Notes under the pieces: model-generated
What the model saw: the letters and a program-made list of their open reading frames with translations, nothing else
What the model was told of the DNA's origin: nothing
Database searches by the model: none
Assembly: GCF_014216315.1 (NCBI RefSeq)
Contig: NZ_CP045702.1
Span: forward strand, 7,614-31,613
Reading direction: 5' to 3'
From: Streptomyces finlayi
Lineage (GTDB): Bacteria; Actinomycetota; Actinomycetes; Streptomycetales; Streptomycetaceae
Length of the DNA stretch: 24,000 nt
Translations under genes and position numbers: made by a program
Shown: positions 3,720 to 11,897 of the stretch, piece by piece
Numbering within the stretch: the stretch's first letter is position 1
Layout of the letters: the number at the start of each line of letters is the position of its first letter

Positions 3720-6275
3720 CTACTTGACGATCTGGAGATCGTCGAAGGCGAGGTCTCGCTCGTCCTCGCGGTTGCAGCGGATGAGGACGGCCACGATCTC
3801 GTCCAGCCGCAGCCGCTCCTCCCTGCCGAAGCATCCTGCATGGAAGCGCAGCGTCGTCGGCATCGACTTGATCAGACCCGGGTTGCGCGGATACGGACGC
3901 GGAAGTCCGCCCACCACGTCGGAGTCCAACCAGGCCCGGTTGCCGTTCGTGTCCTCGACGCCCAATTCGAACCCGGTGGCACCCGGGGGAACTTGCGATC
4001 CGTCCGTCACCTCGGCGGCACGGATCCACAGCTCGGTGCCCACCAGATCGGTGGGCTCGGTGAGTTCGGACCGGAAGGTCCGGCCACCGGCGCCCGCCAG
4101 AGCCACCATGCCGGTTGTCTCACCGTAGAAGGAGTCGTTGAAGGCCCCGGGGACCTGCTGGAAGGGGAACTCGTCCGCGCTCAGACCGGACAACTGCGCG
4201 GTCGGCCGTCCCAGGGAGTTCTTCTCGATGGTGTTCCCGTCCTGATGGTTGTCGACCGTCAGCACGTCCTGTCGCGCGAAGGCCAGGTGGACGTAGTGGG
4301 TGAGTACTCCTGCGGGCAGCACCGAACCGTCGAGATACGCGGTGGCACTGCCGTGCCCCAGCAGGGTGGACCGGTACAGGGCACAGCCGTACGCCGCCAG
4401 GATGCGCTCGTGGTCCGCCCGGTCGATCACCGCGGGCTGAGGCGGCGTCCACAGACTGTCGTCATCGAGCCACTGCCGGTTGAAGAAGTTGTGGTTGGTG
4501 AAGTCGACGTACTGCTGGGACTTGAACGGCCCGGGCGCGGCCAGGTCGTAGAACTGCGCGCCGTTGTTGGACGATACGTCGCCGTCGCCCGCCGGCAGCA
4601 GAGTCATGAACGCGTGGCTGGGAGCGGGCTGGACGCTCGGCAGACCGTCGTAGTTCGCCCAGTTGGTGGGGGCCAGCGAGAGGGCCGACCTGATGGTGAC
4701 GCCGGGGAGGGAGACGAGGCTGGGGACGATCACCACCGCCTCCCCGGCCCGGGAGTGGCCCATCAATCCCACCCGGCCGAAGTCGATGCTGTGGTGGAAC
4801 ATTGAACCCGGATCGGCGTCGACCGCCTGAAAGTGCTTGATGTTCTCGATGATCAGGTCCGCCCGGTCCTCGATATTGGCGAACCCGCTGGCACCGTTGT
4901 TCAGGGCGTTGCAGTCGATGGACACGGCGATGACGCCCATCTTCGCGAGGTCGTGCTGGAAGTAGTCGTAACCGAGGTAGCTCGGGTCAGAGGCCGAGTG
5001 CATGCCGTGCGCCATGAAGACAATCGGCACCCGCCCCAGCGCCGACAGCCGCTGGTTGAACGGCTGGTTCACGCCGTCGTCCTGAGCCGGATAGTAGACG
5101 CTGCCCTTGTTGCCGCCGACGCCGTATTCGAGCCGGCCCACCGGGAACAGGTCGAGCCAGGACGGGTTTCCCGCGCTCGGCGGGTCCACGCAGGCCACGC
5201 GGATCTCCACGGCGTACAGGCCGTAACAGCCGCCGAGGTCTTGGACCACGTGCAGGGTGTCACCATGGGCCACGGTCTTGGTCAGCGTCACCATCGGTCC
5301 GCCGCCGACGCCCACGAGCGTTCCGTCGAGCCACGCGCGGACGACCGCACCGGGGACGAACGCGGAGAGCGTGATGTGCGCGTCCCCGGCCTGCACCGGG
5401 CCGACCTGAGGCGGCGGCAGACTGGAACATGGCAGCACCGTCCCGATACCCGGCAGGCTGGGCGGGTCCTCCGGGCACATCGCCTGCGTCGCGCTTGGCG
5501 GTTCCGCAGTCGTGAACGGGCCCAGTCCGCCGACGGCCAGCGTCCCGCCCCAACAGCCCCAGGTACCCAGTGGCGTGCCCCCACGGTAGACGGTGACTTT
5601 CGCACCGTTCACGACGCCGTGCACGACCACCTGCTGGGGGTCGCTCCCGTAGACCGAGTCGACGGTCGGCGCGGGCAGCGGTTGCGGCGGGAACAGCGCG
5701 TTGTGCCCGACGGACGGCGGACTCGGGTCCCCGCACAACTCGAACCAGGCGCGTGCCTGCTGCGCGAGGGCGTACGCCGGGCTCACGTCCACACCCTGTA
5801 CCGGCCCGCAGCCATCCTGCCGGCCGACCTCGGTGCCGTTAGCGGTGATCCAGACGTTCCCGCCGGTCAGCAGATTGGTGACACCCGTGCGGACGCCGCA
5901 GGCATGGACCGGAGCGGGATTGATCTGCGGCCGCGGGGGACCCGCGGGGAAGTCCACGGTGTGGTCACGGACCGTCACCGGGGCGGACCAGTCGCTCTGC
6001 GCCGTCGCAGTCGTCTGCCGCGCCCGCACCTCCTGGGTCGCCGCCAGAGCGCCAGGCAGGGGCACGGTGACGCCGAGGGGCCAGGGACAGCCACCGTTGA
6101 CCACCGGTGCGCCGACGCCGTCGACCTCGACCTCGACGTCGGCACCGGGGACGTAGTCGAAGACGACCACGGAGGTGGCGCACTGATAGACCGGCTGGTC
6201 CACGCGGGGCGGGGAGAGGAGACGGGGATCCTCCGCCAGTTGGAGGCCCTTGCGTTCGACGATCTTGGCATCCAT
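3720..6275 (-). CDS. multidomain alpha/beta-hydrolase (4 N-terminal Ig-like repeats + lipase/PAF-acetylhydrolase-like core + C-terminal beta domain)
   Basis: The ORF is open to 6380, but the MDAKIVERKG start at 6275 has GAGG upstream. Four ~80-aa tandem Cys-containing repeats, then VPIVFMAHGMH and the nucleophile elbow GLMGHSRAGEA (GxSxG). No evident signal peptide. Confidence 0.85.
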   Translation of the reverse strand: MDAKIVERKGLQLAEDPRLLSPPRVDQPVYQCATSVVVFDYVPGADVEVEVDGVGAPVVNGGCPWPLGVTVPLPGALAATQEVRARQTTATAQSDWSAPVTVRDHTVDFPAGPPRPQINPAPVHACGVRTGVTNLLTGGNVWITANGTEVGRQDGCGPVQGVDVSPAYALAQQARAWFELCGDPSPPSVGHNALFPPQPLPAPTVDSVYGSDPQQVVVHGVVNGAKVTVYRGGTPLGTWGCWGGTLAVGGLGPFTTAEPPSATQAMCPEDPPSLPGIGTVLPCSSLPPPQVGPVQAGDAHITLSAFVPGAVVRAWLDGTLVGVGGGPMVTLTKTVAHGDTLHVVQDLGGCYGLYAVEIRVACVDPPSAGNPSWLDLFPVGRLEYGVGGNKGSVYYPAQDDGVNQPFNQRLSALGRVPIVFMAHGMHSASDPSYLGYDYFQHDLAKMGVIAVSIDCNALNNGASGFANIEDRADLIIENIKHFQAVDADPGSMFHHSIDFGRVGLMGHSRAGEAVVIVPSLVSLPGVTIRSALSLAPTNWANYDGLPSVQPAPSHAFMTLLPAGDGDVSSNNGAQFYDLAAPGPFKSQQYVDFTNHNFFNRQWLDDDSLWTPPQPAVIDRADHERILAAYGCALYRSTLLGHGSATAYLDGSVLPAGVLTHYVHLAFARQDVLTVDNHQDGNTIEKNSLGRPTAQLSGLSADEFPFQQVPGAFNDSFYGETTGMVALAGAGGRTFRSELTEPTDLVGTELWIRAAEVTDGSQVPPGATGFELGVEDTNGNRAWLDSDVVGGLPRPYPRNPGLIKSMPTTLRFHAGCFGREERLRLDEIVAVLIRCNREDERDLAFDDLQIVK

Positions 6276-6596
6276 GGGCAGTACCTCGACGTACCTCGAC
6301 CAAGCAGTCAACCCCCATCTCACGTTCCCATGAGGAGGTACGACCGGCAACCGGACCGGAACATGCCTGACGCGGACCACGGATACGGGGCCCTGTCAGC
6401 TGAAGACGACCGAGTGGCGCTTCAGGCGTTCCGTGCCGTAGCGGGCGAGGGGTCGGAGGGTGAAGTAAGCCTGAGACAACGTCACCCGTCATGCGATACC
6501 ACCCAGAACAGTGCACCTATCCCGATCTCTCACCCCGCGACAGTGAACCCGCACCGCAGAAAGCAGCAGACGGGGTCAGGGCCCGCTGCTTCTCCA

Positions 6597-6637
6597 AGCC
6601 TCCGGCAGGATTCGAACCCGCGACACCGCGTCAGGAG
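6597..6637 (-). other. 3' half of a tRNA-Arg(CCU)-like gene (att-type scar), not an intact tRNA
   Basis: The minus strand reads ctcctga(anticodon loop, CCU)-cgcgg-tgtc-gcggg-ttcgaat-cctgc-cggaggc-t. T-arm and acceptor 3' strand are intact, but no matching 5' acceptor, D-arm or anticodon-stem strand lies upstream. An imperfect hairpin plus TTTC follows at about 6559-6592. Confidence 0.55.
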
Positions 6638-6689
6638 TCCTCCCTGGCGGAACAGCGACGCGTGGAAAGGCGGTCGCGTGGCGTGGGGG

Positions 6690-6706
6690 CCGGGGAACCA
6701 CCCCGG
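6690..6706 (-). terminator. short GC hairpin just downstream of heliorhodopsin stop
   Basis: ccgggg-aacca-ccccgg, 6-bp stem with 5-nt loop, 11 nt from the stop codon; no U tail. Confidence 0.3.
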
Positions 6707-6717
6707 ACGAAGGAGGT

Positions 6718-7569
6718 TCAGCCGGCCAGCGAGCCGGTGAAGATCTGCCAGGCCAGAAGTGACTTCGCCACGAGGCTGAGAACCAGGTAGGCCTTCTCCC
6801 CGTATGCGTAGTCGGACCACCGGCCGACTCCGCGGTACTGGAGCCACTGGTTGAGACCGAAGCTGAAGAAGAGGGCGGCCTGGACGAGAACGATCCCGTA
6901 CACGAAGCCGGGGATGGCCCCGGTCGCGACGATGTTGTACGTGATCGAGAGCCACGGCGTCACACCGACCAGCGTCCCGAACCAGAACGGGAGCATCGTG
7001 GTCACCACCCGTCCCGGCGGGTTCATCTCCTCCTCGATCCAGCCGAAGAGAATCATCCCGACGTTGGCGCCGATCACGGCGATGACGGCGTTGAGGCTGG
7101 TGATGCCCGAGTAGAAGCCGATGAGGAGCACCATCAGGGTCGCGCTCAGCGCGTACTCCAGCCACCTGAATCGGTTGATGCCGCGTCTGAGGTCGCGTTC
7201 GTAGGTGCCGCGGCACACCGTCGCCGTCAGCAGGTGGTCCAGTGCCGCGAGGGTGAGGAAGACGGCGACGGCCCAGCCGATCGGCACGTCGAACAGTGCT
7301 TCGGGGGCAGGCGCCTTCGTCCCTGGGGGCCCCTCGGGCAGAGAGGAGGTGACGGTGATCGAGAAGCTGCCGGCGAGGAAGAGGATCGCCAGGGCCTGGA
7401 CCAGGTGCAGCAGCGTGAGCCCCACGTTCCACGCACGGAGCCCGGCGAGGCGTTCGGCGGTGACACCGGTGGCCACCGGTGTGCCGTCCTCTCTTCTCAA
7501 AATTCCTCCCGAGGGTCGGCGCCGCAGTACGTCTGCATGGTCGTCCCGTCCGGGTGGGGATGACGGCAA
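6718..7569 (-). CDS. heliorhodopsin (retinal-binding 7-TM protein)
   Basis: End-to-end resemblance to heliorhodopsin 48C12 as I recall it: LLHLVQ, LAALDHLL, RFRWLEYALSATLMVLLI, ILFGWIEE, LPFWFG, IPGFVYGI, QWLQYRGVGRWSDY, EKAYLVLSLVAKSLLAWQIF (Schiff-base Lys). The ORF maximum starts at TTG 7569, but third-position bias suggests a real start at TTG 7500 or GTG 7476. Confidence 0.9.
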   Translation of the reverse strand: MPSSPPGRDDHADVLRRRPSGGILRREDGTPVATGVTAERLAGLRAWNVGLTLLHLVQALAILFLAGSFSITVTSSLPEGPPGTKAPAPEALFDVPIGWAVAVFLTLAALDHLLTATVCRGTYERDLRRGINRFRWLEYALSATLMVLLIGFYSGITSLNAVIAVIGANVGMILFGWIEEEMNPPGRVVTTMLPFWFGTLVGVTPWLSITYNIVATGAIPGFVYGIVLVQAALFFSFGLNQWLQYRGVGRWSDYAYGEKAYLVLSLVAKSLLAWQIFTGSLAG

Positions 7570-7916
7570 TCACGTCGCTGCCCCGCCAAAAGCCACACGA
7601 GTGGCACAACGAACCGCCGCACCCGCCGCCGCACCCGCCGCTCTCCGGGACGGTCCGCGCGCCGAGAGCGAGTTCGCCCCCCATCCCCTGCGGTGCTGAT
7701 GTGGCCCGTTAACTCTTTCGCGGTCCTGCAACGCGACCGCTGGCCTCTGGGCCCGGCATGACTGTTGCCCTCTGCCGAAGGCCCCCCGAAGATGATCATC
7801 GCCACTGTCCACAACCTCCCGGGACAGGACAGCTAGCGCACGGTCCGGTGCCTCGGCACAGTCCCGGAAGGAGGTGCGCTCGCGTCCGGCAAGCGCCAGC
7901 CCGAGCGGCACCACCG

Positions 7917-7930
7917 CCGGTGATCACCGG
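7917..7930. promoter_or_regulatory. 14-bp perfect palindrome CCGGTGATCACCGG between the B12-binding gene and heliorhodopsin
   Basis: Read directly; 50 nt downstream of the B12-binding gene stop and about 350-440 nt upstream of the heliorhodopsin start; the 2-nt centre is too tight for a hairpin loop, so a protein-binding site is more likely. Confidence 0.3.
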
Positions 7931-7979
7931 ATGAGCCGATCGCCCGGTACGCGTGCGTGTCCCGAATCTGCCGCAGGGA

Positions 7980-9035
7980 TCAGGCGTCCGCCCAGGTGTG
8001 TCCGGCCCGCTCCAGTCGTCCTCGGCCCGCGGCCAGATGGGTCAGGGCGCGGGGAAGATCACTCAACGGCTCGCAGAGGGCCTGGACCGCCAGGTCCAGG
8101 CCGGCCGGCGGTATACCGCGGTGGGCCAGCACACCGGCGAGGAACAGCAGGAAGTCGGTGAACACGCGCGGGTCGTCGACGAAGACACCCGCGGCGAGGA
8201 AATCCACCAGGAACCCCAGGTCCTCGACAGCGGCCTCGTACCGGTCGTCGGCGCACCGGCCCATCGGCGGGAAGTGCCGGCGCAGGTGGTCGGCCAGGTG
8301 CCGCAGAAGCTCACCGCGACGGCTGACGAGTTGGGTGTACTCCCCGTCAGCCAGGTGGTCCAGTGCGGGCTCCCCGGACAGCGGCGGCGGCCACTGTCCC
8401 ACCAGCAGGTCCGCGGCGTCCACCGCGGTGCGCGCGTAGAGGTCGGCACCCAGCGCACGGGCCCAGATGCCGTCCGGTCCGAAGCCGGCGCCACCGACCA
8501 TGACCGGGACACGCGCCAGTCGGCACGCCTCGATCGTGTGGTACACCCGGGGCAGGCGCACCGCCAGCATGCACGACAGGACGATCAGATCAGAGCCGTT
8601 CTGATGGAGATACGAGATCAGGTGTGCCGTGGGTACCCCGGCACCGAGGAACCGCACCGTGAAGCCGCGCAGTCGCAGCACCTCCGCAACAATGTGGGCG
8701 GGCAGGGTGTGCCATTCGCCGTCCGGACAGGCCACCACGACGCTCCCGAGAGGATGGTCGGGGACCGCTGTCGCGGCGGCGAGTGCGGAGACTGCCCGGT
8801 TGCTGACATGGGTGGCCGCGTGTTCCTGGGCCACACTCCACTCGTTGGTCACCCAGTGCTCGCCAACCGCTGCCTGGGCGGGTGCGATCAGGCCGAGCAG
8901 CACGTCCTCGGCGCTGACGCCGCTGGCGAGAAGTTCCAGGACGAGTGCCACGGCGGCGGTCTCGTCCGCTCGGGCCAGGTGGTCGTCGAAGGCCGTGCGG
9001 ACACTCTCGATGGCGTCGGAGCGCTCGGCGGTCAC
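7980..9035 (-). CDS. cobalamin (B12)-binding domain protein, CarH-type photoreceptor-like module without DNA-binding domain
   Basis: 351-aa GTG-start ORF. Helical bundle with exact Wx9EH (HWVTNEWSVAQEH), then Rossmann B12-binding domain VVVACPDGEWHTLPAHIVAEVLRLRGFTVRFLG...DLIVLSC...PVMVGG, then a ~130-aa extra helical C-terminal domain. GTGA overlap with the upstream PP2C stop. Confidence 0.88.
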   Translation of the reverse strand: MTAERSDAIESVRTAFDDHLARADETAAVALVLELLASGVSAEDVLLGLIAPAQAAVGEHWVTNEWSVAQEHAATHVSNRAVSALAAATAVPDHPLGSVVVACPDGEWHTLPAHIVAEVLRLRGFTVRFLGAGVPTAHLISYLHQNGSDLIVLSCMLAVRLPRVYHTIEACRLARVPVMVGGAGFGPDGIWARALGADLYARTAVDAADLLVGQWPPPLSGEPALDHLADGEYTQLVSRRGELLRHLADHLRRHFPPMGRCADDRYEAAVEDLGFLVDFLAAGVFVDDPRVFTDFLLFLAGVLAHRGIPPAGLDLAVQALCEPLSDLPRALTHLAAGRGRLERAGHTWADA

Positions 9036-9448
9036 TGCGACTGCCCCCCGTCCGTCGGCGCCGCAGGGGCCGCAGCCTGCACGGCCAGAACGGCGAGGTC
9101 GTCATGGTCGCCTCCGGCCAGCCACTGCCCGCTGCGCAGGTCGATACGCTCGGCGACCGCGCCGGCCGGCATGCCGAGGCAGGCGGCCAGGTCGCGCATC
9201 AACCGTCGTTCGCCGTACATCTCCTGCTCCGTCGGCCCGCCGCTCGCCTCGGTCACACCGTCGCTGTACAACAGCAGTAGTTCGCCGGCCGCCAGCCGGA
9301 TCTCCGTCTGGTGGAAGTCCGGGTCGGGCAGGGCGCCGACCAGTGTCCCGCCTATGTGCACTTCCTCCACCGCGCCGTCCTTGCGCAGCACCAGTGGTGG
9401 GAGGTGGCCGCGGCCTCGTCCCGCTCGGCGGCCGCCAGCCACCGCCAC
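9032..9448 (-). pseudogene. PP2C/SpoIIE-family serine phosphatase, C-terminal ~115 aa only (5'-truncated)
   Basis: GHLPPLVLRKDG...AAGELLLLYSDGVTEA...YGERRLMRDL...DHDDLAVLAV matches the last third of the SpoIIE/PP2C domain; the upstream two thirds and any sensor domain are absent, replaced by a transposase HTH stub. Confidence 0.7.
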
Positions 9449-9666
9449 ACCGCACGCTCCCGCACCCCCAGCACGCCCGCCGCCGACCTCACCTGCCCAG
9501 TGGTGAGCTTCCCCTCCCGCCGCAGGGCCAGCAGACGGCGCACCACAGGCCCCCGCAACGCCCGAACCGACACAGCCGGCAAAGCCCCACTCGAATCACC
9601 ACCCGCCCCTTCCGGAGTCGGACCCTGCCATGTCTGATCCACACCCCCGAGCACACCAACACCCAT
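9420..9666 (-). mobile_element. N-terminal helix-turn-helix stub of a transposase/integrase
   Basis: VVRRLLALRREGKLTTGQVRSAAGVLGVRERAVWRWLAAAERD is a typical transposase N-terminal HTH; the reading frame runs straight into the PP2C remnant with no catalytic domain. Confidence 0.5.
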
Positions 9667-9810
9667 CGACCAGCGGATCAGAACTCACGAAACTGAGACA
9701 GCATCACCCCTCACGCGATAACACTCCACGACAGCGATGTCCCATGGATCTCTCACGCCCAGGACAGTGACCCCACACCCCGAAACAACCCATGAGCAGC
9801 AACAACACAC

Positions 9811-9859
9811 CCAGACCCCGCTGTCTCCCACCCCACCGTCCCAAAACCGAGAGATCGCA
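9811..9859. repeat. element-terminus-like repeat, copy A (ends in AAACCGAGAGATCGCA)
   Basis: Shares AxCCCCGCT ... (21-32 nt) ... AAACCGAGAGATCGCA with 12061-12120 in direct orientation; similarity stops exactly after GATCGCA, where the MOSC fragment context begins. Confidence 0.6.
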
Positions 9860-9879
9860 GCCGACCTTCGCCCATCATC

Positions 9880-10140
9880 TCGGGGAGCCGGGGTGGTCCG
9901 GCGGTTCACCCAGCAGGGCGCCACCGGCGCGTATCTGCGGGTGATCGAACCGGGCGCTGTGCGCTCCGGGGACCCTGTCGAGATCGTTCACCGGCCCGAC
10001 ACGAGGTCACCGCCGCCCTGCAGTTCGGGGCCTGACGGCCCAACGCACCCTGTTCCGCGCTGCTGGCTGCCGGGGAGGCGCAGGCGCTGCACCCCGAGGC
10101 GCTGCGCAAGGCGCAGGATTACGCCACGCGGCAGGGCTGA
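9880..10140 (+). pseudogene. MOSC domain protein, C-terminal fragment with frameshifts
   Basis: VVRRFTQQGATGAYLRVIEPGAVRSGDPVEIVHRPD then, in other frames, HEVTAALQFGA and ALLAAGEAQALHPEALRKAQDYATRQG-stop; N-terminal part missing. Confidence 0.55.
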
Positions 10141-10319
10141 GAGCGGGCGGCCGTTCCGTGCAGGGGAAGCGGCGGGTCCGGTCCCGTGACGTGGCGTCAT
10201 CCGTTGCGAGGTCCCGGGGCACTGCGGCGGGAACTGGATCGGTGCGCGGCGCGTCCACCACCAGTGACCGATGCCCGAGGAGAAGTCTTCGAGCCGAGTG
10301 ACGTCTCAGGGGGAAGACC

Positions 10320-11897
10320 ATGCCCGACCCGCAGCAGCCCTGGTACGCCCAGGGCCCGCCGCACCAGCCCGTTCCCGGCAACCCATATGCCTCGGAGGGC
10401 GGGCCCCAGGGGTTCGGGCCGCCGACCGTACCCACACCTCCGCCGCGTCACCGGTTCGGCCGGGGGCCGGTCGTCGCCGCGGTCGTCGCGCTGGTGCTGG
10501 TGGTCGTGGCGGGAGGGGCGTACGCGCTCTCCGACCATTGGCGGGACGAGCCCGCGAAGCCCGTGGCGAAGGAGTCGCCCGGCCCCTCCGGATCGGCGTC
10601 CCCGTCCGGCTCCCCCGCGGCAGGCGGCCCGGAGCTGAGCCACATTCCGACGACGAAGGAGGTCGCCGCCGCCCGGAAACCGGGCGAGTCGGCGGCGTGG
10701 ATCGTCGACGACAAGACCGACCTGCCCAAGCAGATCAACAAGGTCCACGACCTGTGGATCGTCGGTGACACCGCCGTCCAGGCCCTGCACCGGAAGGTCA
10801 CGGCCTACCGGCTCTCGGACGGCGCCGAGGTCTGGAACGTGACGCTGCCCTCCTCCGTGTGCGAGACACCGGCCAACCCGACGCCCGACGGCAGGGTCGT
10901 GGTCTTCCACCACGAGAGGCCGGACAACAATCGGGGCAACCAGTGCAACCAGATGCGGATGATCGATCTGAAGACCGGGGAGCAGGGATGGCGCAAAGAG
11001 CTCGACGAGCCCGGTGACCGGGACAACACGTTCATCGTCAACAGCGCCATCAGCGGCGACACCCTGGCCGTCGCCCGGAACATGGTGGCCATCACCTACC
11101 GGATGGACGACGGGAGCAAGCTCTACGAGATCCCCCGGGAGAACAAGAACAAGTGCGTCCCCGATGACGTGGCGGGCGGCGTTGCCCGGCTGCTGGTCAG
11201 CTCCGACTGCATGATCGCCATCGACCGGAGCAAGAACTACGGCCAGGTGCGCGAGCTCGACCCGCGTTCCGGAAAGGTCCTGTGGCGCTACCGGATGAAG
11301 ACCGGCTGGAGCTTCGGCAGTCTGATCTCCATGGACCCGGTCGTCTTCACCACCTACAACAACGAGGACAGCGCGAGCGACTGGCGGATAACGGTCCTGG
11401 ACCCCGGAGGCAAGCACCGCACCACCTTCGACGCCCGGGACAAGGGCTTCGAGCAGTGCGCCGGAGACGCAGGCGGAAACATCCAGCCCTGCCGGGGCTC
11501 CGGCGTCGGAAAGGGCCTCATCATGCTGGGTGCCACCGACCAGGTCGGCGCGTACGACCTGAAGACCGGGAAGTTCCTGTGGGGCGTCAAGTCCGATGAG
11601 CTGCGCAGGCTGTATCCGCTCCGCGCGGAGGACGGCAAGTCGATGCTCATCTACGAGGGTGCCACTTCGAGCCGCCCCGGCCGGACCTTCGTCATGGGCC
11701 CGCGCGGTGCCGGCACGGAGAAGGACGTCGTGAAGCACCCGGTGGCGACCGCCCCGTACGAGTACGAGATGTCCATGGGGCACACGGCATACGTCGACGG
11801 AAGGCTCGTCCTGACGTCGACGATCGTGAGCGGGGACGAGAAGCGGAAGCCCTGGCGGGAGGCCCGCATACTGTCCTTCGCCCCTGCCGCACCCTGA
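10320..11897 (+). CDS. membrane-anchored PQQ-like (BamB-like) beta-propeller repeat protein
   Basis: 525 aa; Pro-rich N-terminus, single TM VVAAVVALVLVVVAGGAYAL, Ser/Pro linker, repeated D-x-x-T/S-G-x-x-x-W motifs (LSDGAEVWN, LKTGEQGWR, PRSGKVLWR, LKTGKFLWG); GGGGGAAG SD. Confidence 0.85.
   Translation: MPDPQQPWYAQGPPHQPVPGNPYASEGGPQGFGPPTVPTPPPRHRFGRGPVVAAVVALVLVVVAGGAYALSDHWRDEPAKPVAKESPGPSGSASPSGSPAAGGPELSHIPTTKEVAAARKPGESAAWIVDDKTDLPKQINKVHDLWIVGDTAVQALHRKVTAYRLSDGAEVWNVTLPSSVCETPANPTPDGRVVVFHHERPDNNRGNQCNQMRMIDLKTGEQGWRKELDEPGDRDNTFIVNSAISGDTLAVARNMVAITYRMDDGSKLYEIPRENKNKCVPDDVAGGVARLLVSSDCMIAIDRSKNYGQVRELDPRSGKVLWRYRMKTGWSFGSLISMDPVVFTTYNNEDSASDWRITVLDPGGKHRTTFDARDKGFEQCAGDAGGNIQPCRGSGVGKGLIMLGATDQVGAYDLKTGKFLWGVKSDELRRLYPLRAEDGKSMLIYEGATSSRPGRTFVMGPRGAGTEKDVVKHPVATAPYEYEMSMGHTAYVDGRLVLTSTIVSGDEKRKPWREARILSFAPAAP

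Follow-up and report, generated by a model that had tools for sequence, protein, structure and literature searches.

A gene on the minus strand of Streptomyces finlayi raises two questions: what does its vitamin B12-binding product sense, and what becomes of such a sensor once the signalling gene in front of it has been broken? The gene lies in a 24,000-nucleotide stretch of contig NZ_CP045702.1, referred to here as the window, whose GC content of 0.66–0.72 throughout is that of high-GC actinomycete DNA. The original prediction for this locus described a stand-alone CarH-type B12 module coupled to the gene of a PP2C phosphatase. We consider it highly probable that the product is a photocobilin, that its light output is coupled to a phosphatase where the system is intact, and that recombination with a transposon end has orphaned the copy found here. 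The sensor represents no new class of B12 module, as photocobilins have been structurally and biochemically characterized before, and the S. finlayi locus is an ordinary, damaged copy of a known system whose own value is limited.

Identity of the sensor

The photocobilin family was described in 2024 (Zhang et al. 2024, PMC10979010). Its members join a CarH-like adenosylcobalamin (AdoCbl) module to a biliverdin-binding "photoglobin" domain at the C-terminus, which is globin-like and has five helices, and the members tested sense light via both B12 and biliverdin (PMC10979010). Structures have been determined for SasPcob from Saccharothrix syringae in the dark (8J2W) and in the light (8J2X), and for a photocobilin domain that is fused to a diguanylate cyclase (8J2Y) (PMC10979010).

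When the 351-residue S. finlayi protein was compared with the Protein Data Bank (PDB) using phmmer, the two SasPcob entries matched residues 19–341 (E=9e-84, ~51% identity over 319 aligned residues), followed by 8J2Y (E=1e-45). CarH, LitR, AerR and corrinoid proteins were ~70 orders of magnitude weaker and aligned with the first ~200 residues only. The AlphaFold2 model of the sensor, built on a multiple alignment of 40 homologues, reached a mean predicted local distance difference test score of 93.9. In Foldseek this model superposed on SasPcob along the whole chain with template-modelling (TM) scores of 0.87–0.93 and on AbPcob with scores of 0.83–0.89, and CarH covered only the ~205 N-terminal residues. 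A structure prediction had been proposed as a check on the likeness to CarH; it upheld that likeness for the N-terminal part and placed the protein as a whole on the photocobilin structures. The remaining ~130 residues (about 222–343) are all-helical in the model, and the C-terminus has the five-helix, globin-like form of a photoglobin domain, with helices over 226–343. The presence of an extra helical C-terminal domain of this size had been predicted correctly, and its identity as a known biliverdin-binding domain had been missed.

The N-terminal part of the protein likewise agrees with a CarH-type module that has no MerR domain. The best NCBIfam match is CarH, with a score of 66 bits where the cut-off is 400; the alignment is limited to profile positions 81–262, which corresponds to the cobalamin module without the MerR part. 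Additionally, a Pfam scan found no helix-turn-helix or other DNA-binding domain in the 351 residues. These matches and the model indicate that the product of 7980–9035 is a stand-alone photocobilin, a CarH-like B12 module followed by a C-terminal photoglobin domain.

A different identity, that of a corrinoid carrier serving a methyltransferase (MtbC/MtaC-like) with no role as a photoreceptor, is suggested by low-scoring NCBIfam hits (pyl_corrinoid, MtbC and MtgC; E=1e-11 to 1e-8), all well short of the cut-offs, and by the name "methanogenic corrinoid protein MtbC1" that JGI gives to some homologues. Yet CarH is the better NCBIfam match, the photocobilin entries of the PDB outscore MttC by ~70 orders of magnitude, and the protein carries both the W-x9-E-H motif and the four light-responsive signatures described below. 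Moreover, no methyltransferase gene lies nearby, the conserved neighbour being a signalling phosphatase. We regard a corrinoid carrier as scarcely credible, and the MtbC identity was rejected on the grounds of score and motif.

The sensor is 100% identical to an S. finlayi "cobalamin-binding protein" (P0001), and labels such as this one or "MtbC1" conceal photocobilin photoreceptors in the databases. P0001 has 343 residues and begins 8 codons downstream of the GTG (9009–9035), where the window has the codon ATC. This database start looks misplaced, because all close orthologues keep the GTG that overlaps the phosphatase stop. Exact-sequence look-ups with the window photocobilin, P0001 and the neighbouring heliorhodopsin (discussed below) returned no entry on record.

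Residues of the chromophore pockets

To compare individual residues, the sensor was aligned with the SasPcob and AbPcob sequences, and conservation was counted in the 40 homologues. The register of the alignment is validated by AbPcob, which shows a histidine in the column of SasPcob D270, matching the published account (PMC10979010). The W-x9-E-H stretch in the helical bundle and the EWHTLP stretch in the Rossmann domain, both part of the original prediction, were found where they had been claimed (Table 1). W61, E71 and H72 of the SasPcob adenosyl pocket coincide with W61, E71 and H72 of the sensor, and SasPcob H137, which forms a salt bridge to biliverdin across the dimer, corresponds to H138. 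In the crystal structure of SasPcob, the W-x9-E-H residues hold the adenosyl group (PMC10979010). All 40 homologues carry W61, E71, E107 and H109, and 39 of them carry H72; the motif therefore characterizes the family, and a chance match can be discarded. Cobalamin photoreceptors have been assigned four signatures of light responsiveness, namely GxxW, EH, GxxH and GxxxP (PMC11796333). All four can be read in the translation of the sensor, as GEHW, EH, GEWH and GAGVP.

A conserved phosphatase partner in other genomes

A scan of one genome per species yielded five related loci (L001–L005), to which three more distant ones were added (L011, L013 and L014; Micromonospora fluostatini, Catenulispora subtropica and Streptomyces malaysiensis). 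Four of the sensor homologues in the first group, from Kitasatospora and Streptomyces spp., are 89–92% identical to the S. finlayi protein and the fifth is 52% identical. In each of these five loci the photocobilin gene is preceded by an open reading frame (ORF) of 587–735 amino acids with a complete SpoIIE/PP2C domain, and in four of the five with weak GAF matches. The distant loci have an orthologous upstream gene of 577–623 amino acids, in which a SpoIIE domain is recorded for M. fluostatini and C. subtropica. All eight phosphatases (577–735 amino acids) are homologous to one another over nearly their full length, with 44–90% identity to the L003 protein. In every locus the phosphatase stop shares 4 bp (GTGA or ATGA) with the photocobilin start.

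The GTGA overlap between the GTG start of the sensor and the stop of a PP2C/SpoIIE gene had been noted in the window, and intact pairs in other genomes had been named beforehand as a check; overlap and pair recur in all eight loci examined. Since each of these loci keeps both the orthologous phosphatase and the 4-bp overlap, the gene pair is conserved. This strictly kept overlap, found across Streptomyces, Kitasatospora, Micromonospora and Catenulispora, marks the GAF-PP2C phosphatase as the natural candidate for the target of the sensor.

The association of a phosphatase with a photocobilin is not new. Actinobacterial photoglobin/B12 operons hold PAS- or GAF-fused SpoIIE phosphatases together with STAS proteins (PMC8717448), and SasPcob was predicted to associate with STAS proteins, SpoIIE and PP2C-like phosphatases (PMC10979010); a link to SpoIIE/STAS partner switching is thus on record as a prediction. 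The Micromonospora locus (L011) adds three STAS genes and a response regulator to the pair. Stand-alone photocobilins are described as modulating an enzyme in trans (PMC10979010). If the link holds, it would give actinomycetes a light input spanning the visible spectrum into partner-switching stress signalling, as already proposed in print.

Four genomes, two of Kitasatospora and two of Streptomyces, share a segment of ~3.6–4.1 kb with the GAF-PP2C and photocobilin genes at 91–95% nucleotide identity. On either side of this segment their sequences are unrelated, with transposases in L001. A shared segment between unrelated flanks suggests horizontal exchange. The ends of the 3.6-kb island in L002 and L004 were searched for terminal inverted or direct repeats, and only short matches at the level of chance for GC-rich DNA were found.

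Truncation of the phosphatase gene in S. finlayi

The ORF upstream of the sensor in the window (9032–9448) matches only positions 81–190 of the 192-position SpoIIE profile in Pfam and so falls short of a complete catalytic domain. Homology to the intact phosphatase genes begins at 9416, and nothing farther upstream is homologous to the intact loci; the window and its close relatives have only 7951–9416 in common, at 91–93% nucleotide identity. Upstream of this boundary lies the end of a transposon, consisting of 85 bp 5' of a transposase start and the first ~46 transposase codons, and matching a Mu-type transposon on the Streptomyces plasmid NZ_CP109189.1. The transposase stub is up to 94% identical at the protein level to the plasmid transposon, where the counterpart is annotated as "Mu transposase C-terminal domain-containing protein". 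The original prediction was right that the phosphatase is 5'-truncated by a transposase stub. One correction concerns the GTG at 9448, which is no genuine start, since the sequence around it derives from the transposon.

The transposon and phosphatase alignments (L006 and L003, respectively) overlap at an 11-nt microhomology, which points to an illegitimate recombination or deletion junction. The event at this junction removed the rest of the transposon and, from the phosphatase gene, its 5' three-quarters, so that the GAF domain is gone and the catalytic domain is without its N-terminal half. Because homology to the intact loci ends at 9416, the native promoter was probably lost as well. No transposase-phosphatase fusion protein is expected, since the two reading frames differ. 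Judging by the missing half of its domain, the phosphatase remnant cannot be catalytically active alone. The sensor ORF is intact and its phosphatase partner in cis is lost. The locus is a clean example of microhomology-mediated gene truncation with a transposon end. The remnant also shows a cluster of differences over its final ~14 codons.

Proposed mechanism and points against it

By homology to SasPcob, the B12 module would hold AdoCbl with H109 as the lower ligand and with W61, E71 and H72 over the adenosyl group, and the photoglobin domain would hold biliverdin through D272. The dark state is expected to be a head-to-tail dimer. Green light absorbed by B12, or red light acting via biliverdin, would break the Co–C bond and release monomers, in keeping with the published photocobilin dimer that turns monomeric on photoconversion (PMC10979010). 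For homologues, the literature documents AdoCbl and biliverdin binding, optical coupling and light-driven monomerization. In an intact system a translationally coupled operon of two genes would place the photocobilin second, after a serine phosphatase of the GAF-PP2C (SpoIIE) type. As output, control of this phosphatase by light through protein-protein contact is the most likely, and the phosphatase would then act on phosphorylated STAS anti-sigma-factor antagonists in a partner-switching pathway. In S. finlayi, recombination at the 11-nt microhomology would have joined the last 128 phosphatase codons to the 5' end of a Mu-type transposon, leaving an orphaned sensor that either acts in trans or is heading for decay.

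Several points weigh against this account. To our knowledge, regulation of a PP2C phosphatase by any photocobilin is without experimental demonstration. Among the window ORFs scanned with Pfam there are no STAS, anti-sigma (kinase) or sigma factor genes. In the four close relatives a Shine-Dalgarno-like GGAG precedes the photocobilin start by 9–12 nt, and its counterpart in the window (9040–9052, minus strand) is GGGG. The role of stand-alone photocobilins has been termed "less clear" (PMC10979010). With regard to the chromophores, the aspartate that binds biliverdin is kept in 20 of the 40 homologues, so that bilin binding is not family-wide, and F298, in place of SasPcob W296, is the sole deviation among the residues checked. 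In SasPcob, W296 hydrogen-bonds the corrin and tilts ring D of biliverdin (PMC10979010). This column holds Phe in 27 of the homologues, Trp in 10, Tyr in two and Ala in one, indicating that tryptophan is no family-wide requirement.

The prevalence of phenylalanine at this position also bears on the possibility that the sensor uses B12 only, with the photoglobin domain of this Streptomyces clade working without biliverdin in a structural or partner-docking role. AbPcob provides a precedent: it binds bilin weakly, with ~20% biliverdin occupancy, and its authors proposed a structural or partner-docking role for the photoglobin domain (PMC10979010). In addition, the scanned window ORFs include no heme oxygenase gene. 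However, the counterpart of D270, the residue whose loss explains the weak binding by AbPcob, is kept as D272, the globin domain superposes on that of SasPcob, and the change from Trp to Phe retains an aromatic side chain. We think a B12-only sensor improbable and favour the account in which the photoglobin domain holds biliverdin.

Fate of the orphaned sensor

The original prediction had suggested that the module may be orphaned. The loss of its partner in cis bears this out, and the S. finlayi copy may either act in trans or decay. As a natural partner-less case, it poses the question of whether the sensor is retained without its phosphatase. Lineage-specific codon changes number 17 synonymous to 12 non-synonymous in the window photocobilin and 9 to 9 in the phosphatase remnant, in both cases counts too small to separate constraint from decay. 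The ratios are alike in lineages with intact operons.

Signals for expression were sought in the surrounding DNA. A consensus scan of 6400–10400 gave no promoter-like site and one terminator-like site, against ~1 expected, and the 146 nt after the photocobilin stop fold no better than shuffled versions (z=-0.78). An Rfam scan found no cobalamin riboswitch and no other RNA family, nor did ARAGORN detect a tRNA. At 7917–7930 lies a perfect 14-nt palindrome (CCGGTGATCACCGG), ~50 bp past the photocobilin stop and just beyond the point at 7951 where homology to the relatives ends.

One reading of the locus is that the gene is a non-functional relic which, having lost the operon promoter, its coupling partner and its target phosphatase, is neither expressed nor selected and has not yet gained disabling mutations. 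The truncation of the upstream gene and its fusion to transposon sequence fit such a relic, as do the change from GGAG to GGGG ahead of the start, the stretch at 9300–10300, which lacks a coding-frame signal and holds a fragment of a MOSC gene, and the character of the region as a mosaic of short islands. Yet no disruption affects the ORF of 351 codons, which keeps every key residue, the 17/12 count of synonymous and non-synonymous changes, small as it is, resembles the lineages with intact operons, and the transposon end could provide a promoter. A relic is a possibility that we take seriously and still consider unlikely. Even more doubtful is a combined scenario in which expression of the orphan continues (the transposon end being one possible source) and the sensor has been rewired, in trans, to another PP2C paralogue at a different place in the S. 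finlayi genome or to the adjacent heliorhodopsin, and in parallel the ~3.6-kb cassette (91–95% nucleotide identity in four genomes with unrelated flanks) is exchanged horizontally among Streptomyces and Kitasatospora. The reading that we retain is that of a photocobilin orphaned by recombination with a transposon end.

Comparison with known systems

The closest known system is SasPcob, which shares with the S. finlayi protein a three-domain architecture, a similar length (~340 versus 351 amino acids), a stand-alone form and a predicted association with SpoIIE/PP2C and STAS proteins. W61/E71/H72, the axial histidine, H137 and the biliverdin aspartate are all conserved. The two differ in that SasPcob has W296 where the sensor has Phe, and in that the S. 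finlayi copy has lost its phosphatase partner. AbDPcob (8J2Y) has the photocobilin core in common (E=1e-45, TM 0.83–0.89) and is an experimental precedent for light-dependent control of an enzyme by a photocobilin. In contrast to the stand-alone S. finlayi protein, which keeps the aspartate, AbDPcob is a fusion with a GGDEF domain, and a histidine replaces its biliverdin Asp.

Similar to the sensor, photoreceptors of the CarH/LitR type (Thermus thermophilus CarH, 5C8D) have a four-helix bundle with W-x9-EH and a Rossmann domain with an axial histidine. The likeness amounts to ~30% identity and a TM score of ~0.8 over ~205 residues. Photolysis of AdoCbl drives a change of oligomeric state in CarH, and the same is predicted for the sensor. 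Unlike CarH, the sensor has no MerR domain and adds a photoglobin domain, so that its predicted output is protein-protein contact and not DNA binding; furthermore, SasPcob lacks the bis-His light state. AerR of Rhodobacter capsulatus (7TE2) is also a B12-binding light sensor that has no DNA-binding domain and works via a partner protein. However, AerR has no photoglobin domain, matches with E=1e-6 only, and has as its partner the repressor CrtJ and not a phosphatase. Lastly, the PP2C modules of the RsbU/RsbP/SpoIIE type resemble the intact loci, in which the conserved upstream gene encodes a phosphatase with a sensor domain joined to PP2C and in which STAS genes occur at Micromonospora loci, a feature shared with anti-sigma antagonist cascades. 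Here, the input would instead come from a distinct B12/bilin photoreceptor whose gene overlaps that of the phosphatase, and in the window the phosphatase is a dead remnant.

Table 1. Positions of the sensor, its neighbours and the junction in the window (the shared segment is given in the coordinates of its own loci)
Feature	Position	Strand	Basis
Predicted stand-alone photocobilin gene, intact, GTG start, 351 aa	7980..9035	-	ORF list, Pfam, PDB match, model
Four-helix-bundle cap domain, B12-binding_2 (PF02607), aa 15–85	8781..8993	-	Pfam E=6e-14, translation
W61-x9-E71-H72 motif (WVTNEWSVAQEH), predicted adenosyl-pocket residues	8820..8855	-	Translation, alignment to SasPcob
Rossmann-type B12-binding domain (PF02310), aa 98–207	8415..8744	-	Pfam E=2e-17
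E107-W-H109-T-L-P (aa 107–112), H109 predicted lower axial cobalt ligand	8700..8717	-	Aligns with SasPcob E106/H108
Predicted photoglobin (biliverdin-binding, globin-like) C-terminal domain, aa 222–343	8007..8372	-	PDB alignment, model, Foldseek, PMC10979010
D272, equivalent of SasPcob D270 (main biliverdin ligand)	8220–8222	-	Alignment
F298, where SasPcob has W296	8142–8144	-	Alignment
GTGA start/stop overlap of phosphatase remnant and photocobilin	9032..9035	-	Read from sequence
3' remnant, 128 codons, of GAF-PP2C (SpoIIE-type) phosphatase pseudogene	9032..9416	-	Pfam, nucleotide alignments
11-nt microhomology (AGGCCGCGGCC) at putative deletion/recombination junction	9406..9416	-	Overlap of L006 (transposon) and L003 (phosphatase) alignments
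Mu-type transposon 5'-end fragment, 223 bp, first ~46 transposase codons	9406..9628	-	95% nucleotide identity to NZ_CP109189.1
Heliorhodopsin gene, 260 aa, TTG start as in homologues	6718–7500	-	Pfam E=4e-94, NCBIfam HeR E=9e-77
Shared GAF-PP2C and photocobilin segment	L001 1580–5220; L002–L004 about 5490–9130		

Heliorhodopsin neighbour

The account of the neighbourhood in the original prediction described the gene pair well and missed a heliorhodopsin gene next door. This gene lies 480 bp downstream of the photocobilin on the same strand, placing two unrelated photoreceptor genes side by side. It occupies an island of its own, ~1.1 kb in length with a conserved upstream region (6613–7708), which is 96% identical to its closest relatives. 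In those relatives the genes upstream differ (UvrD-like helicase, ROK protein, TerC) and there is no photocobilin. Heliorhodopsin was neither annotated nor detected beside the photocobilin in the other loci examined, and we found no literature linking the two photoreceptors.

Their common strand, the 480-bp distance and the lack of a convincing terminator between them would be compatible with a functional unit for light response, made up of the two genes and brought together secondarily in S. finlayi. Such a unit is very unlikely in view of the separate island with its own conserved upstream region, of the closest heliorhodopsin loci without photocobilin and the examined photocobilin loci without heliorhodopsin, and of the absence of any paper found that joins the two. 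We prefer to view the photocobilin as the former partner of the phosphatase.

Just downstream of the heliorhodopsin, the stretch at 6596–6640 resembles the reverse complement of the T-arm and 3' acceptor end of a tRNA (GGATTCGAACCCGC). It may be the remnant of an integration site; a tRNA fragment is not confirmed, and ARAGORN and Rfam make no call here.

Surrounding region

On the other side of the photocobilin, the opposite (plus) strand carries at 9881–9982 a short fragment whose Pfam match (E=3e-5) is to the C-terminal end of a MOSC domain. This fragment falls within the ~1-kb stretch (9300–10300) that shows no coding-frame signal and is probably a further gene remnant next to the transposon end. 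Beyond the heliorhodopsin, an 886-amino-acid ORF on the minus strand (3720–6380) has a good coding signal and no Pfam or NCBIfam match; it carries a GHSRAG stretch reminiscent of the nucleophile elbow of serine hydrolases. Farther away, within 17874–19563, the minus strand has an ORF whose product contains a domain like that of Scabin, an ADP-ribosyltransferase toxin, and the plus strand, at 18961–19563, has one for a DDE_Tnp_4 transposase. The DDE transposase and the other accessory genes are consistent with a variable, rearranged region of the chromosome.

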